A DNA stretch of 64,000 nucleotides from the IMG/VR virus record IMGVR_UViG_3300021387_003827, positions 1 through 64,000 of that record; one strand, given 5' to 3'. The notes under the pieces were generated by a model. That model was given only the letters and a program-made list of their open reading frames with translations. It searched no databases and was not told the origin of the DNA. Position 1 is the first letter of the stretch. Each line of letters begins with the position of its first letter. This document shows positions 246 through 45,082 of this stretch, one piece after another. Position numbers and translations under genes: made by a program. Origin of the DNA: a virus. Lineage: Duplodnaviria; Caudoviricetes.

Positions 246-2270
246 ATGAAGAAAAATTACACAATGAGAAAAATTTATTTAATTATTCTATTATCTCTTG
301 GGTTTAGCCATAATTTATTTTCCCAAGTAGATACCCTTAGTGAAGCATCTGTTGTTTCATTTTACAGGAATAGTATAAATCCTGGGTCTCTTCTAAGATC
401 ACAACAACTCCGGGAAGAAAATTATGGACAAGAGCCTTCACACCTTTTCAGAAAATTGCCATCTATATTTTCTATGAGTGACAATGGTACTGAATTTGGT
501 TATGGCTACTTTAGAATACGTGGACTAGATCAAACAAGAATTAATGTTACCCTGGATGGAATGCCGTGGAATGAAGCTGAGGATTATGGTACCTATTTTG
601 CCAATTCTCCCGATCTAATGTCATCCCTTCACTCGATTAAAGTAGAAAGAGGATCTAGTTCTTCAAATAATGGTACTGCTTCTAGTGGTGGCAGTATAAA
701 CCTTGAATCTGTCGACCTTCTTAGAGATACCACATCCTTTGCTTATATCGGTGGTGGTAGCTTTAAGACAATGAAGACTTCAGTTATATATAATTCTGGT
801 CTTATCGGAAAGTCGGCATTTCATATCAAGGGAACACAGCAACAGACGGAAGGATTTAAAGATTATGGGTTTAATAATTCTCAAGCTCTTTCCGGAAAAT
901 ATGGATACTTCTTTTCTCCGGCTCATTCCATTGATATCCTAACCTTAAATGGAAGACACCGTAATGGACAAGGTTGGTTGGGGAATACTATGTCTGAACT
1001 AACCTCTAACCCAAGATCTAACGGCAATATAAAGTCAGAGGATGATGAGTGGTTTCAGAGTATAAATAAAATACAATATCGTGGTCAAGTTACTCCATAT
1101 CTCTTCCTTACTTCATCCATATACCTCCAATATCAAAAGGGTTGGTATAATATGGACCTAGATAATTATATGAAGAGAATGGTCACTGAAGATTGGGATA
1201 ATTCTTCTATACTCTATTCTTATGGCCTTAAACATTATCTCTATGGTGGAAATATTGCTTCACGGTGGGAAATAAAGAATTTTCATCTTCAAGCCGGATT
1301 TAATATATATCGGTATCAGAGGCAGCACTATATGGAAATGGGAAGAGGAAAGAATATACCGGTCGATGAGAATTATGATAACACCGGATATAAGAATGAC
1401 CTTAATGTATTTCTTTCTGGGATATATCGATGGAAGGGTCTGGAACTTGGTGGAAATATACAATATCGTTATGTAGATTTCACCTATAAAGATAACCTAC
1501 ATCCTGATATTATCTATAACGAAGATACACGGTGGAATTTTGTCAATTATGGTCTAGATATAAATTATTCTCTTCGGAAGGGTGGTAAATTCTATGTTCG
1601 TTTTGCCGCCGTATCAAGAGAGCCCACACGAACGGATATGTTTGGTGGAAATGAATTCTATCCCGGGGAAATCACATCCCCCACCCCTGAAAGATCTTAT
1701 GATATAGAAGCAGGTCATACTATATCAACTTCAAAGATAAAGGCGAATGTAAACCTTTATTACATGAGGTTTACCAATGAAAGAGTCTTAACGGGAGAGT
1801 ATGGTCTGAATGGATTACCTCTTCATGAAAGTGCGTCTAATTCTTTCAGGTCAGGTATAGAAGCCTCACTGAATTGGAACTTTATATCATCCTTCTATTA
1901 TGACCTTTCTGGATCTTGGAGTATAGGTAGGGTGAATTCTAAGACATTCCAGAATAAAAATCATATCCTTACCCCAAGTCTAATCTTACGAAATGAACTT
2001 GGTTGGAATTCTTCACGATTCACATTAGGTCTGGAGCAGATATATCGTTCTGAGATGTATATGGATCAAGAGAATGAGAATAAAATTCCTTGGTATCTCG
2101 TCTTCAATTTCCATGGATCTTTCAGATATCGAAACATGGAGGTTGGTCTTAGGATTGGAAATATCTTTAATAGGGTGAATTTCTATAATGCTGCTCTCGG
2201 TGCCAAAGATATCTTATGGTTTAGAGAAGCAGGAACTAATGCTTTTGTAGATTTTAAAATATATTTCTAA
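246..2270 (+). CDS. TonB-dependent outer-membrane receptor (Bacteroidetes vitamin-uptake type); start may be 264
   Basis: Signal peptide; plug motifs RIRGLDQTRINVTLDGMP and IKVERGSSSSNNGTASSGGSINL; beta-barrel pattern; terminal NIFN...DFKIYF with C-terminal Phe. Confidence 0.9.
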   Translation: MKKNYTMRKIYLIILLSLGFSHNLFSQVDTLSEASVVSFYRNSINPGSLLRSQQLREENYGQEPSHLFRKLPSIFSMSDNGTEFGYGYFRIRGLDQTRINVTLDGMPWNEAEDYGTYFANSPDLMSSLHSIKVERGSSSSNNGTASSGGSINLESVDLLRDTTSFAYIGGGSFKTMKTSVIYNSGLIGKSAFHIKGTQQQTEGFKDYGFNNSQALSGKYGYFFSPAHSIDILTLNGRHRNGQGWLGNTMSELTSNPRSNGNIKSEDDEWFQSINKIQYRGQVTPYLFLTSSIYLQYQKGWYNMDLDNYMKRMVTEDWDNSSILYSYGLKHYLYGGNIASRWEIKNFHLQAGFNIYRYQRQHYMEMGRGKNIPVDENYDNTGYKNDLNVFLSGIYRWKGLELGGNIQYRYVDFTYKDNLHPDIIYNEDTRWNFVNYGLDINYSLRKGGKFYVRFAAVSREPTRTDMFGGNEFYPGEITSPTPERSYDIEAGHTISTSKIKANVNLYYMRFTNERVLTGEYGLNGLPLHESASNSFRSGIEASLNWNFISSFYYDLSGSWSIGRVNSKTFQNKNHILTPSLILRNELGWNSSRFTLGLEQIYRSEMYMDQENENKIPWYLVFNFHGSFRYRNMEVGLRIGNIFNRVNFYNAALGAKDILWFREAGTNAFVDFKIYF

Positions 2271-2497
2271 TGGATAAGGAAGAATTATACCAACTTTATC
2301 TTGAACATTCTAAAGAAGCGGAATGGGAAAGATATGATTTCGTCGACCCTCCTTATTGTTGGAATGTATCTATGACTCTTGAAGTAGACGGATATCTTTT
2401 CACAGGGGATGGTGATGAAGTCTGTGGATATGAACCAGAATTACGAGAGCTTTATGTTAAGTCCTTGAGTTCTGATGAAACTATACGACTATTATGA
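2270..2497 (+). CDS. Hypothetical acidic protein
   Basis: Overlaps both neighbours (translational coupling). Confidence 0.6.
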   Translation: MDKEELYQLYLEHSKEAEWERYDFVDPPYCWNVSMTLEVDGYLFTGDGDEVCGYEPELRELYVKSLSSDETIRLL

Positions 2498-3594
2498 ATA
2501 AAATAGGAATTTGTTTTGGTGGATATTGTCCTCTTCATCAGGGGCATATGGATATTATTATGCAGGCCAAGAAGGAGAATGATATCTGTTATGTCATAGT
2601 GTGCGGATACGATAATGAGCCACGCGGTTGGGAAATTAATCTCAGTCTCCAGGAAAGATATACCCTGATTTATGATTTCTTTAGGGACGATGATATTATC
2701 CGAGTGAAGAGCATTAATGACACCTCTCTTGGAATTGATGAAAGTATGTCCGACCTTAATTGGAGGATTTGGACCAATGAAGTTAAAAGACTAATTATAG
2801 AAGATATTGGTGATGATAATAATAGGAAATATACTTTTTATGTAGCCGAACCATTTTATAAGGTCAGTATTGAGAAGAATTGTTCCTGGGTTGACGATAT
2901 TATACTTCTTGATAAAGTAAACCCAGTATCCGGTACTCAAGTCAGAAGAAATCCACTGAAATATTGGAATAAAATTACCTCTCCCTTTAAACCATATCTT
3001 TGTAAAAATATTCTCATCATCGGAACGGCTAGTGAAGGGAAATCAACTTTGGTTAAGGATATTGCCAAGTATTTTGATATTCCTTTTGCTTCTGAGTATG
3101 GTAGAGATTATATGAAGGCTGAAGGTATAACAGACAAAGATTTAAGATATAATGATTTTGATGCTTTTCTCTCCGGCCAGTTAGATTATTGTGACACTGA
3201 GAGGAGGAAGTCTAAGAATGGAATCTTTATCTCTGACACGGACAATACTGTAACCTTGATGTATGCTAAAGCGTATGCGGAAGACCCAGATATATCTTTA
3301 AGTGAGGAAGATTATAAATCACTATATTCATCGGCGAAAGAATATAATACCGGTTATGAATACAAGTGGGATCATATCTTTATCTTTCCACCATCGAAGG
3401 AATTTGTAGATGATGGGGTGCGATATATGAAACAAGCACCCATGGTAGAAAGAGAAAAGAATTTCAGTGTTCTTCAGAAACTTGTGGCAGAATTTTACCC
3501 AGATATAAATAAGACATATCTGAATGGAAGCTTCTTGGAGAATTTTAACATAGTAAAGAATTATATAAACAGCCTACTATATGACAAAGTTTAG
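2494..3594 (+). CDS. nadR: NadR-like bifunctional NMN adenylyltransferase / ribosylnicotinamide kinase (no HTH)
   Basis: FGGYCPLHQGH (HxGH) and VSGTQVR nucleotidyltransferase motifs; P-loop GTASEGKST, EYGR, DTD, DDGVR; adjacent to pnuC. Confidence 0.9.
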   Translation: MNKIGICFGGYCPLHQGHMDIIMQAKKENDICYVIVCGYDNEPRGWEINLSLQERYTLIYDFFRDDDIIRVKSINDTSLGIDESMSDLNWRIWTNEVKRLIIEDIGDDNNRKYTFYVAEPFYKVSIEKNCSWVDDIILLDKVNPVSGTQVRRNPLKYWNKITSPFKPYLCKNILIIGTASEGKSTLVKDIAKYFDIPFASEYGRDYMKAEGITDKDLRYNDFDAFLSGQLDYCDTERRKSKNGIFISDTDNTVTLMYAKAYAEDPDISLSEEDYKSLYSSAKEYNTGYEYKWDHIFIFPPSKEFVDDGVRYMKQAPMVEREKNFSVLQKLVAEFYPDINKTYLNGSFLENFNIVKNYINSLLYDKV

Positions 3595-4198
3595 TACTTG
3601 GTTTATAATATTTGGTGTTATTCTCCAGGTCCTATGCTACTTTATAACCGGAGATTCTTGGCTATCTTTGGTAAGTGGTATTCTTGGGGTAATTTCTGTT
3701 GTTTTGTGTAGTGATAGGAAATTCAGTTTCTATATATTTGGGTTTCTTCAACTCTTTACATATCTTATTCTAGTCTTTAAGAATCATCTATGGGGTGAAG
3801 TTGGAGAAAATATATTCTACCTTGTGACAATGGTTCTTGGATTATTCATATGGAGAGAGAATATGGAAGGAGGAGAAGTAAAATCTAAATCACTAAGTCC
3901 TTGGGTAAGATTTATACTTGGTGTATTTTCTGTGGTTGGGATTTATGGCTTATGGAGATATCTTGAAACTACGAATGATCCACAGCCACTCCTAGACTCT
4001 ATAACTACGGTTCCTGCATTTATAGCCCAAATCCTAATGATCTTATGTTTCAGAGAACAATGGATTTTCTGGTTGATTATAGATATCGGAAGTATAATTC
4101 TGTGGTATAATGCAGGAAGTTGGTGTATGGTGTTTCAGTATATCTTCTGGACATCTAATTGTGTATATGGATGGATAAGATGGAGGAAAACCTTATAA
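3581..4198 (+). CDS. pnuC: PnuC-family nicotinamide riboside transporter
   Basis: About 7 TM helices; DSITT...AQILM...REQWIFWLIID and YGWIRW motifs. Confidence 0.9.
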   Translation: MTKFSTWFIIFGVILQVLCYFITGDSWLSLVSGILGVISVVLCSDRKFSFYIFGFLQLFTYLILVFKNHLWGEVGENIFYLVTMVLGLFIWRENMEGGEVKSKSLSPWVRFILGVFSVVGIYGLWRYLETTNDPQPLLDSITTVPAFIAQILMILCFREQWIFWLIIDIGSIILWYNAGSWCMVFQYIFWTSNCVYGWIRWRKTL

Positions 4199-28478: not shown

Positions 28479-29543
28479 TTAATCAAATATAGCATCAAAT
28501 TCCGCTTGGGTCATTAATGATGTACTCGAAGCCAGGGCTGTTGCAGTTATAGTTCCGTCTACATGAAGTTTTGTAGAAGGATTAGATACGCCTATTCCAA
28601 CTCCAGAGGTCCCGAAATATATCACCGTATTTATATTTGTAACTCCACTTAAAGGAGCATTACTTATCGTCCCCGGTTTTCCACCACTAAAGAATGTTTG
28701 TCCCCAGGCGGTATATGTTCCAGTATCTGAAAGTTTCGCTGCACTATTTGCCACCCCTGAAGTGAAATATCCTTGAAGTGTGGTAACAGAGGCAGCGGTA
28801 GCATATTCTGTTGAGGTATATGCATTACTTCCAAGACCTAAAGCTGTCTGAAGTGAAGCCTGAGTTATACTACCACCAAGACTCACCGTTTCACCAGATA
28901 TAGACACCGATGAATTAGTAAGTTGGTCATTCGTAACTTTCCCACTAATTTCACTGAAGGAATATCCAGGTTTTGCCGATTCTAGTGCCCAATCTGATAT
29001 CCCAAGCGTACTTTGTATATTAGACTTTGTAAAGGAGGCAGAATCAAAAGGGGTATATCCTAAAGCAGTTGTCACCATCCCCGAGGTTATCCCGGTTATA
29101 TATGAACTATTGTCTAAGACCCAAGTATTCTCTCCATTTTTCCTAAGTAATCCGCTTGTTTCACTAATACCCTCAATGGCTCTCAGGTCATCTGTTCCAC
29201 TTATCTCTGAAAGACTATATCCTGGTTTAGAAGCAGCCAGAGCCCAATCATATATACCTAAAGTATTTTTGATATTCTCTTGGGTAAACTGTGCGGCCTT
29301 AAAGTAGTCGGATAATTTTCTTACTTCCCCATCTTCGATATCATCCAAATTAAGGGTTATATCTCCAGAGAGCGGTTTTGTATTTATCTTCCTACTTCCG
29401 GGGACATAAGAGGTATCATCAAGACTACCATCGGCCTTTAGAAATTGATTTGAGGTTCCCGAGGGCTTAAATATTCTTCCACCAACAGATAAATCGCCCT
29501 CTATCGTACCGGAACCTGCTTTAAATTTTATCTTATCTATCAT
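28479..29543 (-). CDS. Fibre-like virion protein with internal repeat
   Basis: Two FTxxNIxxTLGIxDWALxxxKPGYSxSEISG units; QFLKADGS; VGIGVSNPSTKLHVDG; ALGYTP. Confidence 0.7.
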   Translation of the reverse strand: MIDKIKFKAGSGTIEGDLSVGGRIFKPSGTSNQFLKADGSLDDTSYVPGSRKINTKPLSGDITLNLDDIEDGEVRKLSDYFKAAQFTQENIKNTLGIYDWALAASKPGYSLSEISGTDDLRAIEGISETSGLLRKNGENTWVLDNSSYITGITSGMVTTALGYTPFDSASFTKSNIQSTLGISDWALESAKPGYSFSEISGKVTNDQLTNSSVSISGETVSLGGSITQASLQTALGLGSNAYTSTEYATAASVTTLQGYFTSGVANSAAKLSDTGTYTAWGQTFFSGGKPGTISNAPLSGVTNINTVIYFGTSGVGIGVSNPSTKLHVDGTITATALASSTSLMTQAEFDAIFD

Positions 29544-30349
29544 TATTTATTATCTTTTCTTTTCTTATTATAGTCGTAGATAGTTTTTCCACCAACCAGA
29601 GCCGCTGAACCAAGAGCTATAATTTTCTTTCCTTTCTTGGACTTGGCGAAATTTCCTACTTTCTTTCCTCCCTTGGCCAGTTTTTCAATCCTATCTATAA
29701 CTTCCTTATCCCTAGTGACAAGTTTCTTAGGACCTTCAGATTTATATATAGCCCTTCTTGTCACTCTATTAATCTTTTCCTCATCTAGTCCTTTCTCCAG
29801 GGCTTTTGCAGCACCAAGACCCATGAGAGCTCCAGCACCAATACCTGTTCCCCACACAGTCTTCTTCCTCTCCTCCGGCTGTTTTTCTGAAAATAACTTT
29901 CTTCTTTTCATATCTAATTTTGATTTTTCCCAAGGTTCTAATACCTCACTCCATGACCACTTATATATCTTAGCCACAGTCTGTCTTGGTCCGTAATGAT
30001 AGGTGGATTCTTCTTTCTTCCGACCAATCCTTATCTCACCAATTTTTTCTACTCTAAGATCCACCAGATACCAATGCTCCTTCCCATAGAGATTCATAAA
30101 ATATGGGACATCATGAATTTCTGGATCTATAAGATTATCTTTCCTTAAGTATTTCGGTTTATATACAGAAAATACCATACCTTCCAGATTTTCCCCAAGC
30201 CTCGAAGAAAGAGCATCACTTATATTATCATAAAGCTGTATTCTGGGAAGATCATTGTCTATAAATTTCCCTTTGGTCAAGAAATTATTAGGAATCTCGG
30301 GTGATATAAACTTATTCTCCAGATTTCCGTTCTCCGCTATTAGTATCAT
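29543..30349 (-). CDS. Two-part protein: N-domain (possibly ART-like) fused to an internal leader MKRRKLFS and a Gly-zipper tail-anchored unit
   Basis: Start at M33 of track ORF; PRIQLY...VYKP...DVP...EHW; internal MKRRKLFSE. Confidence 0.6.
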   Translation of the reverse strand: MILIAENGNLENKFISPEIPNNFLTKGKFIDNDLPRIQLYDNISDALSSRLGENLEGMVFSVYKPKYLRKDNLIDPEIHDVPYFMNLYGKEHWYLVDLRVEKIGEIRIGRKKEESTYHYGPRQTVAKIYKWSWSEVLEPWEKSKLDMKRRKLFSEKQPEERKKTVWGTGIGAGALMGLGAAKALEKGLDEEKINRVTRRAIYKSEGPKKLVTRDKEVIDRIEKLAKGGKKVGNFAKSKKGKKIIALGSAALVGGKTIYDYNKKRKDNK

Positions 30350-30920
30350 TTTTCTTATCCTCCAGGTAGGCTTTCTTTCGTAAGTTCTTCTTATAGTTGT
30401 CAAGAGCATAAGAACCGGCCATAATTCCAGCACCGATAATAGCACCTCTCTTTCCAGCCTTCTTTACTGTCTTCCCGAAAGCCTCGTTATATTTCGGATT
30501 TCTCAGAATAGCTTGGAATGCCTGAGGTGGGAGCCCTCTTTTTCGCAGTTCTTCGGCAGTCTTCTTTAAAATCTTTACGCCCTTAGTGCTTTTCCCGATA
30601 TTATAGCCGGCTACAGTTCCCAAACCAAGCCCAAGGATCTTTTTACCAGTCGGAATCTTCTCTGTGTCTGGTTCATCTACTTTATTCTTGCTCCTAAATT
30701 TCGTTGAATCTCGGTAGTCATGCTTTATCTTTGAAGAAGTATATCCACTAAAAGCACCAAGGGTTCCGCCAATAAGAGCACCTTTCTTTCCAGCTATCAT
30801 ATTTCCGGCGGTTCCATAAAGGAGTCCAGACAAAGCAGCTGATTCGGCATTATCAATCTTATCCGTCTTTTCCAGGGCTTCTCTTGTCTTCTTGCCCTTT
30901 GAAAATAATTTAATCTTCAT
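30312..30920 (-). CDS. Leader-tagged multi-Gly-zipper protein
   Basis: MKIKLFS; four Gly-rich hydrophobic segments. Confidence 0.78.
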   Translation of the reverse strand: MKIKLFSKGKKTREALEKTDKIDNAESAALSGLLYGTAGNMIAGKKGALIGGTLGAFSGYTSSKIKHDYRDSTKFRSKNKVDEPDTEKIPTGKKILGLGLGTVAGYNIGKSTKGVKILKKTAEELRKRGLPPQAFQAILRNPKYNEAFGKTVKKAGKRGAIIGAGIMAGSYALDNYKKNLRKKAYLEDKKNDTNSGERKSGE

Positions 30921-35499: not shown

Positions 35500-37203
35500 A
35501 TGAAAAGAAACGAGAACCTGATACAAAAAATCTTCGGAGCTACATCCGTCGGAAAAGGTGGAATGCCTCTTCGCTCCAATATATATGGAACAAGAGGATA
35601 TACCCCTATCGGACAGACTGGCTCTAGAATTTTTGATAATGAAAGAAACTCTCCGCTACTTGGAAACTATGCTGCCTCTAATACCTTAAGTGGATATTAC
35701 GAGAAGCTTAGTGAACTTAGGGGATATCAACTATTAGATATCTCAAAATTAGCGGTAAACTTCTTCTCTGACTATATCATAAACTTTCTTGCAGATGATT
35801 CAAACGGCTATCAGATTGCTTCTATCCTTAATGATGAGGGTGAAATAGATGAAGTCGTTTCCGAAAGAATTAATGATATTCTGTCCAAAGATATTCGTAT
35901 TTTTGACTATATCAAGGATCATATTCAAGATTATGTATTCTATGGAGACTATTATTCCATGCTTCTTGCCTCTAAAGACGATGAAGGACATACAAAGTTT
36001 AGAGTCGAAGAACTTTATGACCCAATTGCAGTAGTCGTTAAGAAAAAGAGGGGCAAAGATGGTGAGATGGATGAGGTGTTTCTAGCCAAAGGAGATGACG
36101 GTAGTGTATATGAGATTCCAAAAGAAGAAGTTATATACTTAGCCACCAATAATTTGAGATTAAAGAATGATATCTCGGGGAATTGGAAAGAAACCGCAAA
36201 ACCTAAATCTATAAAAGATCAGAAAAATCGCGAAAAAGTTCTCCTTAAAGAATCATTTTCTGCATCTGAACCACTATTTTACTCTCTAATCCTGAAAGTA
36301 AAGGAGCTCGTAGTAAAGGAGCTTCTTGTTTCTCTTATTAGTCTTAGAGATTTGTCTTCGGTTCAGATATTCCTTCTTCAATTTGATAAGTCCGTTCCCC
36401 TTGAAACTGCAGAAGAATTGTGTTCAAAGACTACAAAATTAGCTAATGCAACTAATGAAGTAGCCTCTTTCCTTACTTCTCAGTTTGATGTTGTGAGCTT
36501 TATTGAGAATACTTTGGTTCAGTCCGCTAAATTTGTTCCAGATTATAATTCGACAATTGGCGGAAAAAACGCTATGGTCCCTCTTGATAAGCTCTCTGAT
36601 AAGCTCTTAGACATTATGCAATCTATAGATACTTGTAGGAATAACGTCTTAGGGCCTCTTGGATTACCTTCTACCATTGTCGATTCTACGTCTGGCTCAA
36701 AGTGGCAAGTTCTCCAACAGTCTGAACGGGCTAATTCAAGAGTAGCATTCTTTATGGCTGGTATTAAGGACTCTGTCACTAGTCTTGTATGTAATATCTA
36801 TAAGATTATTTATGGAGAAGAATTAAATCCAAGTTGTGTAAAACTTCATATTGCAGAAAAAACGTCCGTCGAGTATAATAATCAAATTAACCAGTCTGAG
36901 TCTATAAATGGCCTCTTAAACGGTCTTACTCAGGTTATAAGTAATGCTCTCCAGACGTTAGAACAGGCTTCACCGCTGATTGATGCTAGGGCTTATCTTT
37001 CGTATATTCATAACTTACTTAAAGATATAGACCCCAACACCGAATCAATCATAACTAAGGATACAATGAATACTTATCTTAAGACCTTAGTCGCGAAGCT
37101 TAGAAATCAATATGAACAGCTAGGAATGAATCCAGAGGATATAATGTCTCTATTCCCAGATCCAGAGGAAGAAGAACAATCATCTAAACTAGAAAAATTA
37201 TGA
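35500..37203 (+). CDS. Portal protein (T4 gp20-like)
   Basis: First gene of head cluster; 567 aa, helical; YVFYGDYY and LGLPS motifs; QKIFG site near N-terminus. Confidence 0.7.
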   Translation: MKRNENLIQKIFGATSVGKGGMPLRSNIYGTRGYTPIGQTGSRIFDNERNSPLLGNYAASNTLSGYYEKLSELRGYQLLDISKLAVNFFSDYIINFLADDSNGYQIASILNDEGEIDEVVSERINDILSKDIRIFDYIKDHIQDYVFYGDYYSMLLASKDDEGHTKFRVEELYDPIAVVVKKKRGKDGEMDEVFLAKGDDGSVYEIPKEEVIYLATNNLRLKNDISGNWKETAKPKSIKDQKNREKVLLKESFSASEPLFYSLILKVKELVVKELLVSLISLRDLSSVQIFLLQFDKSVPLETAEELCSKTTKLANATNEVASFLTSQFDVVSFIENTLVQSAKFVPDYNSTIGGKNAMVPLDKLSDKLLDIMQSIDTCRNNVLGPLGLPSTIVDSTSGSKWQVLQQSERANSRVAFFMAGIKDSVTSLVCNIYKIIYGEELNPSCVKLHIAEKTSVEYNNQINQSESINGLLNGLTQVISNALQTLEQASPLIDARAYLSYIHNLLKDIDPNTESIITKDTMNTYLKTLVAKLRNQYEQLGMNPEDIMSLFPDPEEEEQSSKLEKL

Positions 37204-37499
37204 TTATACTAAGAGATAAATCATTCTCCGATAAGAAAGAAGATATCGGAAGAAAAGCCAGGAATACTGGTATTATAGCGGCTGGAACTGGTGCTGGGAT
37301 GTATGCACTTGGGAAACTTGGCGAGAAGGTAGGCAGAGGAAAAAGTAAGTATGCCGAAAGTCTAGCCAAGAAAGGACCTAAAGCTAAAACTGCCGGACTA
37401 ATTCTTGCTGGTTCTGGAGCTGTTCTTAGTGCCGCCGGTGAAATAAAACGTAGGAGAGATAAGAAAAAGAGCCATGATAATTCTAAGAAAGAAGACTAA
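37200..37499 (+). CDS. Leader-tagged Gly-zipper protein
   Basis: MIILRDKSFS. Confidence 0.78.
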   Translation: MIILRDKSFSDKKEDIGRKARNTGIIAAGTGAGMYALGKLGEKVGRGKSKYAESLAKKGPKAKTAGLILAGSGAVLSAAGEIKRRRDKKKSHDNSKKED

Positions 37500-37800
37500 G
37501 TCATTTTCTTTCGAGGAACAGGAGCAGATTACATCAAGGGAGCTTCAAATAGAGCAACTGAGGATGCAAAGGCAAATTCTGGAGACTCAAAAGCTCAAGG
37601 AAAAACTTAGGGCACAAGAGTCACAGCAGCGCTTAAAACAGCTCTCCCAGGCTCAAAAAGTTGAACAGAAGAGAGATATGGAGGAAGACAAAAATCAGAT
37701 TAAGGTCAGAAGGATCGAAGATGAAAATAATTCCCCCAAGAATGTAAGTCTCTATAAAACAAGATCTAAAGTAATCACTCCTATTCCGATGAGAGGATAA
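37474..37800 (+). CDS. Leader-tagged Gln-rich coiled-coil protein
   Basis: MIILRKKTKSFS. Confidence 0.75.
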   Translation: MIILRKKTKSFSFEEQEQITSRELQIEQLRMQRQILETQKLKEKLRAQESQQRLKQLSQAQKVEQKRDMEEDKNQIKVRRIEDENNSPKNVSLYKTRSKVITPIPMRG

Positions 37801-37804
37801 TATT

Positions 37805-37939
37805 ATGAATGAAGAATTAAAAGAAAAGACGTTCGTGGAAGGATGTGAGAATGCTCCTAGCGAACTTTCTGAAAAGACATATAATCCATTACATAGTAGC
37901 GATGAAGAACTTTTTACGAAAAATTTTCTCCTGGGTTAG
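37805..37939 (+). CDS. 44-aa acidic ORF not in the track (possible prohead core peptide)
   Basis: MNEELKEKTFVEGCENAPSELSEKTYNPLHSSDEELFTKNFLLG*; fills the gap between genes. Confidence 0.55.
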   Translation: MNEELKEKTFVEGCENAPSELSEKTYNPLHSSDEELFTKNFLLG

Positions 37940-38198
37940 AAGTCAGACATGGATTCCAGAGTGGTTAAGAGAGTCTAATCGAGAGAAGCACTTAGTTCTC
38001 GGAATTCCTTGTGGGTTCCTATCATTAATCTTTACCTTAGGCTGTGCATGTGGTCTTGAGACTAAAGACGTACAATATAATAATTGGGACTTTAAAGCTT
38101 GGGACTGGAAAGATTTTGGTGCTACAATGATTGGCGGCTTTATTGGCTTCCTCATTCGCTCTATTATCATACTTGTAATACTTTTAATCGTACATTAA
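37902..38198 (+). CDS. Small membrane protein (holin candidate)
   Basis: REKHL...E.KD...WDWKDFGATMIGG; 2-3 TM segments; start at M20 of track ORF. Confidence 0.6.
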   Translation: MKNFLRKIFSWVRSQTWIPEWLRESNREKHLVLGIPCGFLSLIFTLGCACGLETKDVQYNNWDFKAWDWKDFGATMIGGFIGFLIRSIIILVILLIVH

Positions 38199-38201
38199 TA
38201 T

Positions 38202-38873
38202 ATGGAAAGCAATCCCTTTGGCTCTGATGATTTAAGAAATAAAATCCTTGCCAAAGAAGGAAGGCTGGATATAGATAGTCAGAGTCAAGATAACGACGAT
38301 CTTATGGGGATTATATCTTCTGCCCCGGTTATTCCGAATAGCGCAAAGAATGTAATCCTGGACTCAAAAGCAATGGCCATAGCAAACCGGAAAGAAAAAG
38401 AAGGTGAAATTGCTGTGGCTATAACAGATATGCTTACGGACCTCAATGAACAGTATGACCTAGATTTGGATGGAATTAATATAAATAATTTCACACAAAC
38501 TCTAGCTAATGTCATTGATCCTAAGAAACGTGAGATACTTGAACTCTATGTCTCTGAAATAAGTAAATCTATAAAACCCGTCCTCTACTTGCATATTCTC
38601 CAAAGACTTATGTTAGTTATGGATAATGTTCTTAGTCCGGAAGTTCTGTTCTCAAATGAATTCTCAGCCCCTGACAAGGTTCTACTTCTTGAAAAGATTG
38701 TAGCTATGGCTGGAGAATTATCAGACGCCCTGGAAGAAATGAAAGTGGAGAATTCTGATGCCGTTCTTAAGAAGATAGCAGAAACAAAGAACGATGAGAA
38801 CTTAGAATCACCCGAGTCTAAGAAGATAATAGAGGAATTTATGTCAATGTTTAAAAAAGATAAAGGACTATGA
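38202..38873 (+). CDS. Hypothetical acidic helical protein
   Basis: Long ORF in head operon. Confidence 0.7.
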   Translation: MESNPFGSDDLRNKILAKEGRLDIDSQSQDNDDLMGIISSAPVIPNSAKNVILDSKAMAIANRKEKEGEIAVAITDMLTDLNEQYDLDLDGININNFTQTLANVIDPKKREILELYVSEISKSIKPVLYLHILQRLMLVMDNVLSPEVLFSNEFSAPDKVLLLEKIVAMAGELSDALEEMKVENSDAVLKKIAETKNDENLESPESKKIIEEFMSMFKKDKGL

Positions 38874-39283
38874 TTGTATATAGAAGTAAACTATTTACAG
38901 ATATAAACGAAGACATAGTAACGAGATATCTTGGTGTTCTGGGAGGTTTTATCTTTAAGGCCAAATCTTTACATTGGGCAGCCTCTGGAAAAGATATACA
39001 TGAATATCTTGATGATTTCTGGGAGATTATTTATAATTTCCAAGACACCGTAGCTGAGTGTTGGATGGGAATAAATGGCCAGCTTGGTCCGGATGATGTG
39101 ACCTTTGTTGCCGCCGAATCCCAAAACCCAAAGGATTTCATTAAAGAAGTTGAAGATAAGACCACTGATTTTTATGAACTTCTTCCACAAGATGACCCTC
39201 GATTTAAGGGACTTATCAGCGAAGTGGAGAATTTCATGCACGAGATAGAAAAATATAAGTATCTCTTTGGTCTTTGTATGTAA
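38870..39283 (+). CDS. Leader-tagged Dps/ferritin-like protein
   Basis: MIVYRSKLFT; KSLHW...IHEYLDDF...DTVAE ferroxidase-like pattern; KYKYL end. Confidence 0.75.
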   Translation: MIVYRSKLFTDINEDIVTRYLGVLGGFIFKAKSLHWAASGKDIHEYLDDFWEIIYNFQDTVAECWMGINGQLGPDDVTFVAAESQNPKDFIKEVEDKTTDFYELLPQDDPRFKGLISEVENFMHEIEKYKYLFGLCM

Positions 39284-39318
39284 AATAAAATAATGTCGGG
39301 AAACGTTATTTTTGGTAC

Positions 39319-39393
39319 AGTGCATTAGTTCAGCCAGGTTAGAATGCCACACTGTCACTGTGGATGTCACGGGTCCGAATCCCGTATGCACTG
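39319..39393 (+). tRNA. tRNA-Asp (GUC)
   Basis: Acceptor AGTGCAT/ATGCACT, D arm GTTC/GAAT, anticodon arm CCACA-CTGTCAC-TGTGG, T arm ACGGG-TCCGAAT-CCCGT, discriminator G; followed by CTA, not CCA. Confidence 0.9.
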
Positions 39394-39518
39394 CTAAGAG
39401 TGTATGTGGGAGGCCCCGATGCGCCCACCTGCACTATAAAAAAAAAGATTCTTCCCTCTATATAGGGGAGTTTATATAGAGGGATTTTCCCTGAAAGTAA
39501 TAATTCATTATACGAAAC

Positions 39519-40814
39519 ATGCGTTGTAAGGTAAAATTATTTAGCACCAATCCGACTGAATTAGCAGCGGATGGTAGTCATGTGCCTGCTTCGTCATTCC
39601 TTGAATATAGAAATAGTGATAATTACAAGAAGATGATTGCATCTAAGACTGGATGGGTTTCTGCCACTCATAGAGGTAGAGCTCTGTCTAATGCAACTAA
39701 TTCTGGACCAACTATCGCTAAATCTGTAGGCAGAAATGATATGAGCCTGCTTATGACTGAACATGGAGCTGAGCCTATATTTTATATTACGAGCTTAGAT
39801 CTAGAGAATGATGGGTGGGTATATGCATGGATAGAGTCCTTCCCACCCGAAAATATGGACGACAATGCTCTCCAAACTTATAAGAGATTAAAATATCTTA
39901 TAATGGCTGGGTGTCTTATCTCTACCAGTATGGTATGTCTTGCCTTCTGGTCTGAGGAACCCGGGTCAAAGAAGTCCATAGCTAAGAAGATTGTATCCAT
40001 TTCCGGACTTGATTTTACCACCGGTCCTTCTTGGGCTGATAGTGGTATTGTAGAATCCTATGATGATTCTGGAAATCTTATATCAAGCCTCAGTGAACAA
40101 CTTACCACGAAGAAATTTTCGGATATTCAACTAGATGATATCAAATTCGAGGAAGTAAAAGTTAAGATGTTCTCTGATGTTTCTGATATTCCTGGTGCCG
40201 CCGGTCTTCCTAAGTCTTCAAAGATTGATGGATCTTTCACTAGACTGGGAGCTAAGTCCTTCTCATACACTGGGACTTGTGGTGGTATCTGTGAGGTTGC
40301 AGAAGATGAGGAGGATAAAACATTCTCTGAACCAGAACAGAAGGAATTCACTCAGGCTCAAGTTAGAGAAAGACTTAGAGAGGCTAAAATGGGTGGTCCG
40401 AGAATGGAAATGAGACGTACAATTCTTTCCTATAAACAGCTTCTGAAACAAATGGGTGGAGTTGATAAGATGAATCCTGAGGATGTAAAAATTCTCAAAT
40501 CTCTCCTTACCTCCGATCTTCTCCGTATTGTGGGAAGTGTTTCAGATCAAATTGCAAGTGGAAAGAATATTAATACTCTCCTTGGTCTTAGCTCTTTAGG
40601 ATCTACGTTTAGGAAATATGGCCAAGCTCTTATGATGCCAATGAAACTCGGTATAAACGAGCTTAAGAGAAATGGATTTGTTACCAAAGCAAGATATCAG
40701 AAGCTTCAGGCTGCATATACTGATTTTGTTAATGCGGTAGTAGAAGATATTTTTGGTCCAAATCCTAGCCCAGTCATTAATGAAGACGAGAATCTAGAAG
40801 AAAATGAAGAATAA
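39519..40814 (+). CDS. Prohead maturation protease (T4 gp21-like fold) with C-terminal extension
   Basis: ATHR (His), ISTSM (Ser), GLDFTTGPSW (Asp; cf. DxVxxPS); lies upstream of scaffold and capsid genes. Confidence 0.7.
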   Translation: MRCKVKLFSTNPTELAADGSHVPASSFLEYRNSDNYKKMIASKTGWVSATHRGRALSNATNSGPTIAKSVGRNDMSLLMTEHGAEPIFYITSLDLENDGWVYAWIESFPPENMDDNALQTYKRLKYLIMAGCLISTSMVCLAFWSEEPGSKKSIAKKIVSISGLDFTTGPSWADSGIVESYDDSGNLISSLSEQLTTKKFSDIQLDDIKFEEVKVKMFSDVSDIPGAAGLPKSSKIDGSFTRLGAKSFSYTGTCGGICEVAEDEEDKTFSEPEQKEFTQAQVRERLREAKMGGPRMEMRRTILSYKQLLKQMGGVDKMNPEDVKILKSLLTSDLLRIVGSVSDQIASGKNINTLLGLSSLGSTFRKYGQALMMPMKLGINELKRNGFVTKARYQKLQAAYTDFVNAVVEDIFGPNPSPVINEDENLEENEE

Positions 40815-41448
40815 TATGGAAAAAAGAATTAAATTATTTTCTCGTCCTGAAGAAAGAAAGATTAAATTATTCTCGGCCGATAGTGAAGAGCTTGGATTTC
40901 AGAGGGTATTTTCTGAAACAACTGACCCTCTTGAACTTAAGCTCAAAGAATTTTCCGGCCGTGAGCTAGATCTTTCAGAGTATGAAAAGGAATTCAGCGA
41001 TTATGACCTTATCGAGAAAGGTTATGCTGAAAAATCTGAAAACTCTGTTAAAATTACATCTTCTGCATTCCCCATGTCTCGCCTATTCTCTACAATTACT
41101 ATAACTATTGCAGATGATTTAGGCCTAGATAAGGATATAGTTTGTGGAAAATGTAATAAAGAAGAGGTTATTTCCGGACTACATGAAAGACTAAGCCCAG
41201 CTGCTATCATGATTTTAAAACAGGCTCATGGTATTCCAGTTGAAGAAGATCAGAATACTTGGATAAAGGATTCTGGTATTGAGAAAGATATTGATTTTGA
41301 ATTTAAAGAGGATGACTCTAAACCCCTCCCCGAATTCAAAAGATTTCTTGAAGAAAGATATAACGACGCACCATCCGATATTCTTGATATCCTCAAAAAT
41401 AAAGGTATCATAAGAGTTGATGGCGAAGTGGTAAAAATTATAAAGTAA
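40804..41448 (+). CDS. Prohead core-like protein with six [K/R]xFS sites
   Basis: KLFS x2, RVFS, KEFS x2, RLFS. Confidence 0.65.
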   Translation: MKNNMEKRIKLFSRPEERKIKLFSADSEELGFQRVFSETTDPLELKLKEFSGRELDLSEYEKEFSDYDLIEKGYAEKSENSVKITSSAFPMSRLFSTITITIADDLGLDKDIVCGKCNKEEVISGLHERLSPAAIMILKQAHGIPVEEDQNTWIKDSGIEKDIDFEFKEDDSKPLPEFKRFLEERYNDAPSDILDILKNKGIIRVDGEVVKIIK

Positions 41449-41463
41449 ACTTATTATTAAATT

Positions 41464-43611
41464 ATGGTAACTAGACTTATGTCACGACTCTTCTCTGCCA
41501 CCGAGGAAAGAGATTCTGAACTTACCGAGCAGGTTGGTAATGATATCGAGGCCGCAAAGAAAAATGGTGTTGTCGATACTGAAGAGTTAAAGTTTGAAGA
41601 CAAAGGTGATGGCAAGGTTGCTATTACCGACAAAGAAAATGGCGAGGTGACTATGGCAGAGCTGAACCAGGAAGGTCAATATGAGCTTTATCCTGCCGAG
41701 CAGTCTGAGCAGATCGAGGGCTTTATCCACCCGGAAGGGGATGGTGTAACTCCTGGTGCTCAAGTTGGCGCTCCGGATGAGCATGCTGAAGACCACATGA
41801 CTGGTGAAGATGTTATAGCCCCCAATAAAGAAGATGGTGGCCTGAATCCTGAAGCTGGCCACGAAGCGAGAGTTGACGATTCTCAGAAGCCCGCAGAGGA
41901 TGTATGCCCTGAGTGTGGCAAAAACCCTTGTGAATGCGAGAAGGATGAGAAAGAGAAGGAATTTAGTGTTTCTACTGACAATGCTGCTGTTCTTCGTATC
42001 TTCTCCGATCAAGAATTCTGTGAGAGAATCTTCTCTGAGGTTATCGCTACCGAAGAAACCGCTAAGGTTGGTGATCTGAAGGTTGAAAAAGTTGCTGACG
42101 AGGACAATGCCGTTATCGTTACTTCTGAATCCACTGGTGATCAGGCTAAGGTTGTGGTTAATGAAGATGATCTTGATGTGTCTGAATTAGACAGTAAGGA
42201 ATTCTCTGATGATGAGGACGAAGATGATGAATGCAAGAATTGTCATGACGACGCTGCCTATGCTCTTAGAGTTGTTGGTGTTGACACTGACAATCACGTT
42301 CTTATCGACTCTCCTGTGTATGACGAACAGGCCGCTAATGACCTTGTAAATCGTCTTAATGAACTTGGCATTGAAGGTGTTCAGGTATTTGGAAGTGATG
42401 AAGAGGCTCGTGAATATGCTGCAGAACTTCTTAATAGTCTCGGCGTAGAGTCCGATGATGACATTGATGAGCCCGAAGAGGCTACATTCTCAGACACTGA
42501 CGAATATACCCTTTATACTACCCAGTTCTCTACTAACCAGACCTATACGAATGAAGCCCAAACTAAGTTCTTCTCCGAGAAAGAAAACATGACTGACTAT
42601 ATGGTTCGTCTGTTCTCTGAGGAAGCTAGTGAGGAAGCTATTGAGTCTGCTGTTGCCCAGGGTATTCCGATTGCCACTGAAAATGAAACCATCGTTCCTA
42701 TCGATGAAGCCACTGCTGTCATTGAAGATAAGGAGAATGGTGAATATACCTTAGCTGTTGTTAACGAAGATCACATTGAGGTTAATCCTATCGATGAGGA
42801 TTCTGCTAAAGGTATGATAGAGGAAAAGGATACTCCTAAGCCCGAAGTTGAGGAGGAAAAGGACTTCTCCGAAATGTATTGCAACGAAGCTCAGACTAAA
42901 TTCTTCTCCCTTGGTGAGCCTATGACCCAGTATATGGTTCGCCTGTTCTCTGATGTTTCCGATCAGGAGGATATTGAGAAGGCTATCGAGTCTGGTGATA
43001 AGGTTGAGACTGAGACCGAAATCATCACTCCTATCGATGAGAAGACCGTCGTGGTTGAAGATAAGGAGAATGGTGAATTTACTAAGGCAGTTCTTGATGA
43101 GGAAGACATTGACGTTAATCCTATTTCAGAGGCTGAGGCTGCTGAACTTCTCCCCGCAGAGAGCGACGTAAAAGTCGAAGTAGAGGAAGAGAAGAAAGAG
43201 GATTCTGACGACAAGCACGAGGAAGAGAAGAAAGAAGACGACGATGAAAAGAAGGAGGATGAGAAGAAATTCTCCGACCCTATGTCTAAGTTCTTCGCTG
43301 AGGTCTCTGGTGTTGCTGTAGATGCTCCTAAGACTGTTGAATTTATTGTGGATGAGAATGGTAATCCCGTTCGTCCGGTTGTAGCTGAGGCTGATTCTGA
43401 AGAAGCTACTCCCGTTGAGGCAATTGAAGATAAGGCCCTTGCTGCTGTTCAGTCCATTCAGGCTGCTGCCGCTGAAGCCCAAGCTCAAATCCTTAACGCA
43501 AAATCTGCTCCTGTAGAGAATCAAGAAGATCTCCAGGAAGCTACATTCTCTCAGAAAGAGAGTAATTCCAATGACATCGTTGTTTCTTGGATTAAAGGAA
43601 ACATGAGATAA
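41464..43611 (+). CDS. Acidic scaffold / prohead core protein
   Basis: Very Asp/Glu-rich; directly upstream of capsid gene; repeats DKENGE and NEAQTKFFS...YMVRLFS; 14 FS dipeptides. Confidence 0.8.
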   Translation: MVTRLMSRLFSATEERDSELTEQVGNDIEAAKKNGVVDTEELKFEDKGDGKVAITDKENGEVTMAELNQEGQYELYPAEQSEQIEGFIHPEGDGVTPGAQVGAPDEHAEDHMTGEDVIAPNKEDGGLNPEAGHEARVDDSQKPAEDVCPECGKNPCECEKDEKEKEFSVSTDNAAVLRIFSDQEFCERIFSEVIATEETAKVGDLKVEKVADEDNAVIVTSESTGDQAKVVVNEDDLDVSELDSKEFSDDEDEDDECKNCHDDAAYALRVVGVDTDNHVLIDSPVYDEQAANDLVNRLNELGIEGVQVFGSDEEAREYAAELLNSLGVESDDDIDEPEEATFSDTDEYTLYTTQFSTNQTYTNEAQTKFFSEKENMTDYMVRLFSEEASEEAIESAVAQGIPIATENETIVPIDEATAVIEDKENGEYTLAVVNEDHIEVNPIDEDSAKGMIEEKDTPKPEVEEEKDFSEMYCNEAQTKFFSLGEPMTQYMVRLFSDVSDQEDIEKAIESGDKVETETEIITPIDEKTVVVEDKENGEFTKAVLDEEDIDVNPISEAEAAELLPAESDVKVEVEEEKKEDSDDKHEEEKKEDDDEKKEDEKKFSDPMSKFFAEVSGVAVDAPKTVEFIVDENGNPVRPVVAEADSEEATPVEAIEDKALAAVQSIQAAAAEAQAQILNAKSAPVENQEDLQEATFSQKESNSNDIVVSWIKGNMR

Positions 43612-43636
43612 TTTAATAAAATATTTTATTATAGTA

Positions 43637-45082
43637 ATGAATAATTATAAGACTTATATGGAGCGTCCTGAAATGATGGAGGCTCTTATCAACAGCTCTG
43701 TTTCTGTTGATGATGCTAAAATTCGTTCTAACGAATATGCCAAGATGTTCTCTCGTAACGACGAGCTGAAAGACTTCTTCGGCCTTAGCAACTCTTCTAA
43801 TCTTCTGCAGAAGACCTTCTCTGGTTATGCAGAGACCCCTCTCATGAGCACTCAGTATTTCAATGCTTCTGTTGCTTCTTATGTTAGCTCCTTCGCTGGC
43901 TTTATGTCCATTGAAAGAGATTTCGATCAGCCTAACGGTCTGTTCTACTGGTTCGACGTTCTCGGTGTTACCGATATGCGTTCCGTTATTCCTAACCTCG
44001 GTCCGGATAACTACCAGGATATCAACACCATGGGTGGCTTCAAGTTCGATGTGAATGTTACCGCTTCTGCTTCCTTCTCTGCTCTTGTAGGTAGAAAGCT
44101 TATCCCTGGTACCGTTCGCGTGAAAGTGAAGACCGCTACTGACTCCTTCGAGCTTATCGATAACGGTCAGGGCGCTTTCATGGCTGTGTCTGGTAAGATC
44201 ACTGCTGGTACCCTGAATTATCTGGGTGGTCGTATCGAGTTCACCCTCGCTACTGCCCTCACCGGTGATGCCACCAAGGAATCCATCGTGATTGTTGGTA
44301 AGGAAGATGTTACTGGTACTCCTTCTAATACTAATGGTGCTTCTAATGCCCATGCTAACGATAAGAGATTCATTGCTAAGATGCAGCAGATTGGTCTCAG
44401 CACTGTTCCTGACATGCTGGTGGCTGAATACAATATCGCTGCTCTCGGTGCCATGAAGAAGGCCACTGGTTCTGATATGGCTACCTTCCTGTTCACCAAG
44501 CTGCGTGAGCTCTATACCAAGGCTATCAACTATAAGCTCGTTTCCACTCTTGAAGAGGGTTACGAAGGCGACGTTCTTGTCGATCTCGATCTGTCACAGA
44601 CCGCTATGACTGGTCAGTTCTATGACTATCAGTCCCGCATCAACCTCTTTGATGCTTATCTTGTGAACGTTGAAACCGCTCTGGCTTCTAAGGCTATCAA
44701 GGCTGTCTCCACCACTGCTTATGTGGCTGGTGTAAACGCTTGTAACCAGTTCACCAAGGGTCGTGGTATTGGTAAGTTCGAGAAGAACACCAAGATGACC
44801 TACATCAACGACCTCGCTGGTTGGTATGACGGCGTGCCCGTGCTCCGTTCCAACGATATCGCTGAGGAAAATGGTCATGGTGTATTCTATGCTATCCACA
44901 AGACCGCTGATGGTCAGATGGCTCCTCTTGCCCGTGGTATTTATATGCCTCTGACCGATACTCCTACCGTCGGTAACTACAACAACCCGACCCAGATGGC
45001 TTCTGGTATCTACTACCAGGAGGGTACCAAGTATCTTGCCCCTGAGCTCGTACAGAAGGTTGACTTCAAGCTCGGTCTCTAA
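43637..45082 (+). CDS. Major capsid protein (HK97 fold, T4 gp23-like)
   Basis: QPNGLFYW; FIAKMQQ...LVAEYNIAALGAMKKATGSD...LYTKAIN aligns by eye with the gp23 spine region; YMPL; strongest codon bias in the window; terminator follows. Confidence 0.88.
   Translation: MNNYKTYMERPEMMEALINSSVSVDDAKIRSNEYAKMFSRNDELKDFFGLSNSSNLLQKTFSGYAETPLMSTQYFNASVASYVSSFAGFMSIERDFDQPNGLFYWFDVLGVTDMRSVIPNLGPDNYQDINTMGGFKFDVNVTASASFSALVGRKLIPGTVRVKVKTATDSFELIDNGQGAFMAVSGKITAGTLNYLGGRIEFTLATALTGDATKESIVIVGKEDVTGTPSNTNGASNAHANDKRFIAKMQQIGLSTVPDMLVAEYNIAALGAMKKATGSDMATFLFTKLRELYTKAINYKLVSTLEEGYEGDVLVDLDLSQTAMTGQFYDYQSRINLFDAYLVNVETALASKAIKAVSTTAYVAGVNACNQFTKGRGIGKFEKNTKMTYINDLAGWYDGVPVLRSNDIAEENGHGVFYAIHKTADGQMAPLARGIYMPLTDTPTVGNYNNPTQMASGIYYQEGTKYLAPELVQKVDFKLGL

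Follow-up and report, generated by a model that had tools for sequence, protein, structure and literature searches.

A diverged gp21-fold prohead protease and its predicted aromatic cleavage motif, [KR]-x-[FY]↓S, in the head-assembly module of an uncultured T4-like gut phage

The characterised gp21-type prohead proteases, which have been studied in T4, phiKZ, 201phi2-1 and SPN3US, all cut after Glu (PMC9026906). In the T4 gp21 system, which comprises gp22, gp67, gp68, gp23, gp24, IPI-III and Alt, the scaffold is cut to small peptides at [LI]-x-E↓ (the arrow marks the scissile bond), and the capsid-targeting sequence, a 10-residue tag on unrelated internal proteins, is processed by gp21 with residues 8 and 10 as the determinants (PMC9026906). 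The phiKZ gp175 and SPN3US gp245 enzymes cut themselves just after the catalytic domain, and propeptides carry redundant site clusters (PMC9026906, PMC5694885). Here we analyse the first 64 kb (64,000 nucleotides, hereafter the window) of the virus record IMGVR_UViG_3300021387_003827, a sequence of 182,986 bp with direct terminal repeats from an uncultured gut or rumen phage. A first-pass annotation of the window had proposed a prohead protease with a new specificity, [K/R]-x-F-S, written throughout the head proteins. The enrichment, placement and conservation of the motif support this reading, with substrates distributed as for the T4 and phiKZ proteases, and we consider it quite likely that the phage protease cuts [KR]-x-[FY]↓S in a T4-like head-assembly module.

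The head genes occupy 35.5-45.1 kb on the + strand, where a 567-aa open reading frame (ORF) and five small ORFs are followed by ORFs of 431, 214, 715 and 481 aa (Table 1). The five main head proteins had no Pfam match (E <= 0.1) and no PHROG match (E <= 0.01). For the 431-aa product (39519-40814), the protease role assigned by the annotation was borne out by Foldseek and VIA-align, which both return the gp21/assemblin fold. An AlphaFold2 (AF2) model built on 28 homologues is confident over residues 1-190 and 293-420, with predicted local distance difference test (pLDDT) values mostly of 80-94 in the catalytic domain. The top Foldseek match of this model is T4 gp21 (5JBL; probability 1.0, E 6e-3), and VIA-align superposes its N-terminal domain on 5JBL with Z 9.0 and a root-mean-square deviation of 2.9 A over 132 residues (model residues 1-170), with herpesvirus pUL26N second at Z 6.4.

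The catalytic residues guessed by the annotation, the second Ser of ISTS (S137) and the His of ATHR (H51), are present in 39/39 homologues, including those of 22-33% identity, and align to Ser140 and His85 of gp21; D165 is present in 38/39, and all three residues are invariant in the 28 closer homologues. In an hhalign comparison, H51/S137/D165 are paired with gp21 H85 (in LNHPPR), S140 (in PGVSS) and D168, although the match is weak (probability 12%). A His/Ser/Asp triad has been described for both gp21 and SPN3US gp245 (PMC5694885). The phage protease differs from T4 gp21 in its length of 431 aa, its long linker and its C-terminal helical domain, and in being without the N-terminal 37 residues of gp21. 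A family profile of the protease had no match among PDB sequences. Like phiKZ gp175 and SPN3US gp245, it is a diverged gp21 homologue found only by profile or fold comparison; judged from the model, the 39519-40814 product is a real but very diverged gp21/assemblin-fold protease.

Outside the triad, R54, D74, D18, S20, W144 and T167 are invariant or nearly so in homologues down to 22% identity, and R54 aligns with the Arg of the HPPR motif of T4 gp21. D74 and D18 are candidates for a pocket reading the basic P3 residue.

The surrounding genes follow the T4 order: portal, small core genes, protease, scaffold and capsid correspond to T4 genes 20-67-68-21-22-23, and the order protease, core protein, scaffold, capsid is kept in all 74 related loci. 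The capsid role of the 481-aa product held up, as gp23-like, by transitive homology: over its C-terminal 180 residues, hhalign pairs it with the IME392 capsid protein, from an E. coli phage (probability 96%, E 2.5e-9), and this protein in turn passes the Pfam Gp23 cut-off. The capsid family profile found no match among PDB sequences and nothing useful against T4 gp23 by hhalign, and an AF2 model from a 12-sequence alignment reached a pLDDT of only 45.

For the 567-aa product, the proposed portal role found no sequence-level match, neither in Pfam, PHROG or PDB sequences nor, to any useful extent, by hhalign to T4 gp20. In the ESM Atlas, it lies near gp20-like Portal_T4 clusters (feature score 0.97, structure TM 0.61, 451 aligned residues), which we take as a lead only to a gp20-like portal. 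Its residues 10-14, [QE]K[ILM]F[GS], are kept in 10/10 relatives examined.

The motif counts of the annotation were reproduced on recounting. The scaffold contains 24 Phe, 14 FS dipeptides and 11 [KR]xFS (plus KFFA) in a protein of net charge -139, and the 40804-41448 ORF contains six. The protease carries KLFS at residue 6, KKFS at 198, KMFS at 216, KSFS at 246, KTFS at 267 and KEFT at 275; the first 62 residues of the capsid protein carry KMFS at 36 and KTFS at 59, and the portal carries KIFG at residue 10. When these counts were compared with per-protein residue shuffles, [KR]xFS lay far above the composition-matched expectation in the head proteins: 11 against 0.12 expected in the scaffold, 6 against 0.15 in the 40804 ORF, 5 against 0.21 in the protease, and 2 against 0.15 (P = 0.008) in the capsid protein, with no shuffle above 3. 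When every 3-of-4-residue pattern in the candidate substrates was ranked in an unbiased way, with no motif assumed in advance, K.FS came out first (16 versus 0.26) and R.FS second (7 versus 0.12). Glu-type sites, judged by enrichment only, showed no enrichment in the same substrates, either as the T4-type [LI]xE (20 versus 18.1 expected) or as the phiKZ-type [SAG]xE (24 versus 32.4 expected).

The excess of the motif is confined to the structural module. Over the whole genome, 65 [KR]xFS were observed against 21.8 +/- 4.2 expected, whereas the non-structural control genes at 60-183 kb had 11 internal sites against 12.8 expected and 2 at N-termini against 0.9; among genes at 5-60 kb, 13 sites fell in the N-terminal 20 residues against 0.9 expected. 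Within the head proteins, no motif was found in the mature capsid (residues 63-481), the C-terminal domain of the protease or the body of the portal, and the catalytic domain of the protease has a single one, the N-terminal KLFS.

These counts also bear on the suggestion that the motif is a site of Ser modification, [KR]-x-x-S resembling a basic-preferring kinase consensus, or a by-product of repeats or composition. The near-invariant Ser at +1 and the basic residue three places ahead of that Ser would fit a modification site, and the scaffold does contain an internal duplication, QTKFFS...YMVRLFS, at residues 365-386 and 476-497, so that about 9 of its 11 sites are independent. Composition is excluded by the shuffles, and duplication cannot explain the motif because it recurs in non-homologous proteins, at N-termini, in 74 loci and in distant clades. 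The motif is written with both Ser codon classes (TCN 41, AGY 11), both Phe codons (TTC 31, TTT 21) and seven different codons for K/R, and the use of both classes for Ser and both codons for Phe points to selection on the peptide rather than on codons. An invariant aromatic residue at -1, as seen here, is atypical of basic-preferring kinases. No kinase was found among the window proteins scanned against Pfam, a scan that was not aimed at kinases. Modification or artefact is, in our estimate, barely credible.

Behind each copy of the duplicated site pair in the scaffold stands a DKENGE[YF]T-type module, and a third, similar one is found around residue 55. The scaffold looks like a set of small domains strung between clusters of cut sites.

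The motif was examined in relatives at two distances. Protease homologues number 146 in metagenomes, and 74 loci were found in IMG/VR, many on contigs of 360-400 kb. For 13 diverse loci, the number of [KR]xFS is 7-14 per scaffold, 4-8 per core protein, 2-5 per intact protease and exactly 2 in every capsid protein. Among the FS dipeptides of the protease, core and scaffold homologues of these loci (n=256), which were collected without any condition on position -2, 86% have K/R at -2 and 62% have E/D at +2. Across 13 relatives, neither of the two capsid sites (EYAKMFS and LLQKTFSGYAETPL) changes, whereas the spacer between them varies in length and sequence. In 28 protease homologues, K216-x-F218-S219 and K246-x-F248-S249 are invariant, and [KR]-E-F-[TS] stands directly before the C-terminal domain in 28/28 sequences.

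A profile search of 1.84 billion cluster representatives extended the protease family to 238 members. In 31 homologues at 22-33% identity, K.FS is the top pattern after the catalytic domain (59 versus 3.7), and [KR]x[FY]S occurs 101 times there against 11.6 expected and 6 times inside the catalytic domain against 3.4. The linkers of these 31 sequences are unalignable, yet the motif is kept, and Glu-type motifs are not enriched in them either. On the contigs of three distant homologues, the motif also appears in neighbouring genes and within N-terminal tags.

In many relatives (L002, L042, L052 and many of the 360-400 kb loci), inserts of about 165-220 nt break the protease gene up into two or three ORFs. 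Examples are L002:10460-10678 and L002:11255-11419, and the second of these matches Rfam Intron_gpI at 28 bits (E 9e-5), below the gathering score. The protease gene of the window phage is intact. Jug phages have been described as T4-like, with small group I introns and with Bacteroides or Phocaeicola as predicted hosts, and no cleavage motif was mentioned for them (PMC12880540). The 360-400 kb relatives are probably Jug Bacteroides phages, an identity that we infer from their size, their T4-likeness and their intron-split protease.

For the protease itself, the annotation had listed sites at the N-terminus and right after the catalytic domain. The post-domain cluster stood, being conserved as described above, and its placement matches known self-processing, since gp175 and gp245 cut themselves there. 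Three of the five post-domain sites lie in segments with pLDDT <50, and F218 lies in a stretch of pLDDT 53-69. The C-terminal helical domain beyond them is modelled at pLDDT 81-94 with only generic helical-bundle matches (Z about 5-6.5), and is probably, to judge from the model, a core- or scaffold-binding module released by cleavage. In other phage clades (P0213, P0218-P0235), this C-terminal domain occurs behind an unrelated N-terminal domain of about 90 aa with [KR]xFS exactly at the junction, and at L078:8622-9485 and L079:2914-3786 such a domain-fusion gene directly follows the protease gene.

This arrangement resembles that of herpesvirus assemblin (pUL26, pUL26.5), which has a related fold and Ser at P1', and in which the protease is likewise joined via cleavable sites to a C-terminal assembly domain. 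The scaffold domain shared by pUL26 and pUL26.5 resembles the C-terminal domain carried on a second protein in the other phages of this family. Assemblin differs from the phage protease in its Ser-His-His triad and in its site, (V/L)-x-A↓S; in addition, no nested or separate copy (paralogue) of the protease C-terminal domain was found in the genome of the window phage.

Beyond the head proteins, many ORFs of the structural module start with a tag of the consensus M-I-I-L-R-Q-K-x-[FY]-S. [KR]xF[SGAT] falls within the first 16 residues of 26 genes, 22 of them in the first 57 kb, and when Tyr is allowed, 39 window genes carry the tag. The 9-residue form MIILRQKxF↓S is present on about 30-40 structural-module proteins, far more than are tagged in T4. 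The annotation had equated the core of this cargo leader with the head-protein motif, and the tag does end in the same [KR]-x-F-S, matching the T4 capsid-targeting layout, in which otherwise unrelated internal proteins share a short N-terminal tag that ends in a protease site with determinants at P3 and P1. The register also agrees with P3/P1 of T4, the K and F here occupying residues 7 and 9, compared with residues 8 and 10 for the determinants there. By this analogy, the tag may target proteins into the head.

A 9-residue extension is also known from Firmicutes, where the L27 extension reads MLxx(D/N)LQ(F/L)F↓A (PMC9405229), and the cuts could in principle be made by a host Prp-type protease, as at the ...LNLQFF↓A ends of S. 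aureus phage 80alpha proteins, the phage enzyme having another job. The tag shares with the L27 extension its 9-residue length and its end in Phe followed by a small residue (PMC9405229), as it does with the extensions of the 80alpha capsid and scaffold proteins, and the tags of a distant relative (L080) read MNKLNL[KR]SFSAKA, close to the L27 extension. Prp, however, is a host Cys-His protease of Firmicutes and relatives with the motif (D/N)LQ(F/L)F↓A, and its substrates carry one N-terminal site each, whereas here there are dozens of internal sites and a phage-encoded Ser protease with conserved sites in its own linker. P3 is K/R here (86-100%) rather than Q, and P1' is Ser. Peptidase_Prp (PF04327) was not found in this phage or in two near-complete relatives, and it had no match in a Bacteroides thetaiotaomicron control genome; the probable relatives are predicted to infect Bacteroides or Phocaeicola (PMC12880540). 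Host Prp-type processing was rejected on the absence of PF04327 from the genomes searched, the different P3 and the single-site substrates, and we hold it to be very unlikely.

At L080:2654-4097, next to a distant protease homologue, three consecutive small genes start with MNNLRSFSAKA, MNMNKLNLRSFSAKA and MNKLNLKSFSAKA. These starts come close to MLKLNLQFF↓ASKK, the Prp-cut N-terminal extension of L27 in Firmicutes, a likeness that could reflect convergence or shared origin.

The motif-bearing set thus comprises the scaffold, the core protein, the N-terminus of the capsid protein, the post-domain linker of the protease and the N-terminal tags. We propose that a Ser-His-Asp protease (S137, H51, D165) would act after prohead assembly and cut at [K/R]-x-[F/Y]↓S, with a basic P3, an aromatic P1 and Ser (sometimes G, A or T) at P1'. 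The acidic scaffold and the 214-aa core protein would be chopped to small pieces, the core protein leaving a 119-residue piece; the capsid protein would lose a 61-residue propeptide and start at S62; and the portal N-terminus would be trimmed. The protease would cut itself to give a catalytic fragment ending at F200 or F218 and a free C-terminal domain starting at T278. The 9-residue tag would be removed from some 30-40 small structural-module proteins, so that the cargo starts at the Ser after the tag, and would act like the T4 capsid-targeting sequence.

The predicted pattern, with self-cleavage after the catalytic domain, many processed head proteins, redundant site clusters and a processed portal, is the same as for phiKZ gp175 and SPN3US gp245, whereas P1 in those two systems is Glu (S/A/G-x-E, A-x-E) and most propeptides exceed 100 residues, compared with an aromatic P1 and tags of 9 residues here. 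T4 gp20 is not processed (PMC5694885), whereas the portal here carries a candidate site. The scaffold would be reduced to small peptides as in T4, and the capsid propeptide is of about 60 residues here versus 65 in T4.

Several observations weigh against this proposal. Pfam Peptidase_S77 (PF03420) had no match to the protease and hhalign reached gp21 with a probability of only 12%, so that the protease is a structural homologue and not a member of PF03420 as currently modelled. Among its own sites, KLFS (residues 6-9) falls within the first core beta-strand, modelled at pLDDT 87, and many close relatives have KVLS or RCCS in its place, which together make the proposed N-terminal cut doubtful. 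KSFS 246-249 (F248) sits in a confidently modelled strand rather than in a loose linker, where it may be a docked substrate or no more than an element of the fold. Three scaffold FS sites are without K/R (EATFS twice and TTQFS). Placement of the scissile bond between Phe and Ser, not after Ser, follows from analogy alone, namely the P3-x-P1↓ register of the T4 and phiKZ sites and the A↓S of assemblin. The tblastn searches with the protease, the portal and three distant protease homologues found no match in 50,697 GenBank phage records, and there is thus no cultured relative among the GenBank phages. Cleavage is a conclusion from sequence, and a short motif that recurs along an acidic, disordered protein could instead serve for binding.

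The last point defines the main alternative, in which the motif is an uncleaved docking element that glues scaffold, core proteins and tagged cargo together or to the inner shell, while the protease cuts elsewhere, for example after Glu. Multivalent motif arrays in a disordered acidic protein are what docking would predict, some copies of the motif are in structured strands, and the T4 capsid-targeting sequence holds targeting information besides its cut site (PMC9026906). Docking is also compatible with cleavage, the T4 tag doing both jobs. As a replacement for cleavage, it is difficult to reconcile with the position of the motif at the capsid propeptide boundary, like that of the T4 gp23 cut at residue 65, and at the domain boundary before the protease C-terminal domain, where it is found even in very distant homologues and with a different fusion partner. 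The lack of enrichment of Glu-type motifs and the tight pairs 8-14 residues apart, which look like the redundant cut sites described for phiKZ, also argue for cleavage. Docking without cleavage at the motif is, in our view, unlikely.

Taken over the relatives, a broader statement appears reasonably probable: that in a large and abundant clade of T4-like gut phages, a gp21-fold protease has switched from Glu at P1 to an aromatic P1 with a basic P3 and Ser at P1', and that a universal packaging tag of 9 residues ends in this site. Probable members of the clade are the Bacteroides-infecting Jug phages, along with lineages only 22-33% identical in the protease. Our literature search found no description of an aromatic-P1 (Phe-specific) prohead protease or of the 9-residue tag. 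The reading as a whole is well supported in silico and is readily testable.

If cleavage at the motif is correct, specificity in the gp21 fold can change completely while the logic of assembly stays. The processed and packaged (possibly injected) proteins of uncultured phages could then be listed from sequence alone, the motif being predictive because only about 0.1-0.2 chance matches are expected per protein, and foreign proteins could be loaded into the capsids of these phages by means of the tag. [quoted passage not shown] Existing metaproteomes offer a check of the prediction, since the N-terminal peptide of the major capsid protein is conserved.

Table 1. Features of the head-assembly module, in window coordinates, with predicted processing sites
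Feature	Position	Strand	Remarks
Putative T4-type portal, 567 aa	35500..37203	+	Conserved N-terminal candidate site K10-I-F12↓G13
Two small overlapping ORFs, 99 and 108 aa, starting MIILRDKSFS and MIILRKKTKSFS	37200..37800	+	Leaders; position of T4 prohead core genes 67 and 68
Protease catalytic domain, aa 1-190, triad H51/S137/D165	39519..40088	+	gp21/assemblin fold, from model
Protease post-domain region, aa 191-278	40089..40352	+	Five predicted self-cleavage sites, after F200, F218, F248, F269 and F277
Protease C-terminal helical domain, aa 279-431	40353..40814	+	Helical bundle, from model
Core protein, 214 aa	40804..41448	+	Six sites in residues 10-96; predicted mature piece residues 96-214
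Acidic scaffold, 715 aa, net charge -139	41464..43611	+	12 predicted cuts; predicted fragments 8-157 aa
Capsid-protein propeptide, aa 1-61	43637..43819	+	Sites after F38 and F61; predicted mature N-terminus S62 (SGYAETPL...)
Mature major capsid protein, gp23-like	43820..45082	+	Without internal motif

At the genome start, window positions 246-4198 hold a block with a TonB-dependent receptor (Plug domain) and a NadR-like gene, and more downstream. The block has 67-73% DNA identity to one end of JAFRDD010000051.1, a 41.6-kb contig of 27-29% GC. A host assignment through the TonB-receptor gene (246-2270) was tried and rejected, its sole lead being this contig, which is binned in a goat-ileum 'Clostridia' metagenome-assembled genome. 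The contig encodes SbcC/Rad50-like, Mre11-like phosphoesterase, ligase, ClpX-like and radical-SAM proteins and shares only the TonB-NadR block with the phage; it has the look of a further large phage that was misbinned, and is uninformative on the host.

Two window ORFs have an internal Met before a tag-like sequence, 29543-30445 (- strand) at residue 179 (MKRRKLFS) and 37845-38198 (+ strand) at residue 20 (MKNFLRKIFS), which suggests wrong longest-ORF starts or two merged genes. The tag may be useful for fixing true start codons in the phage genome.

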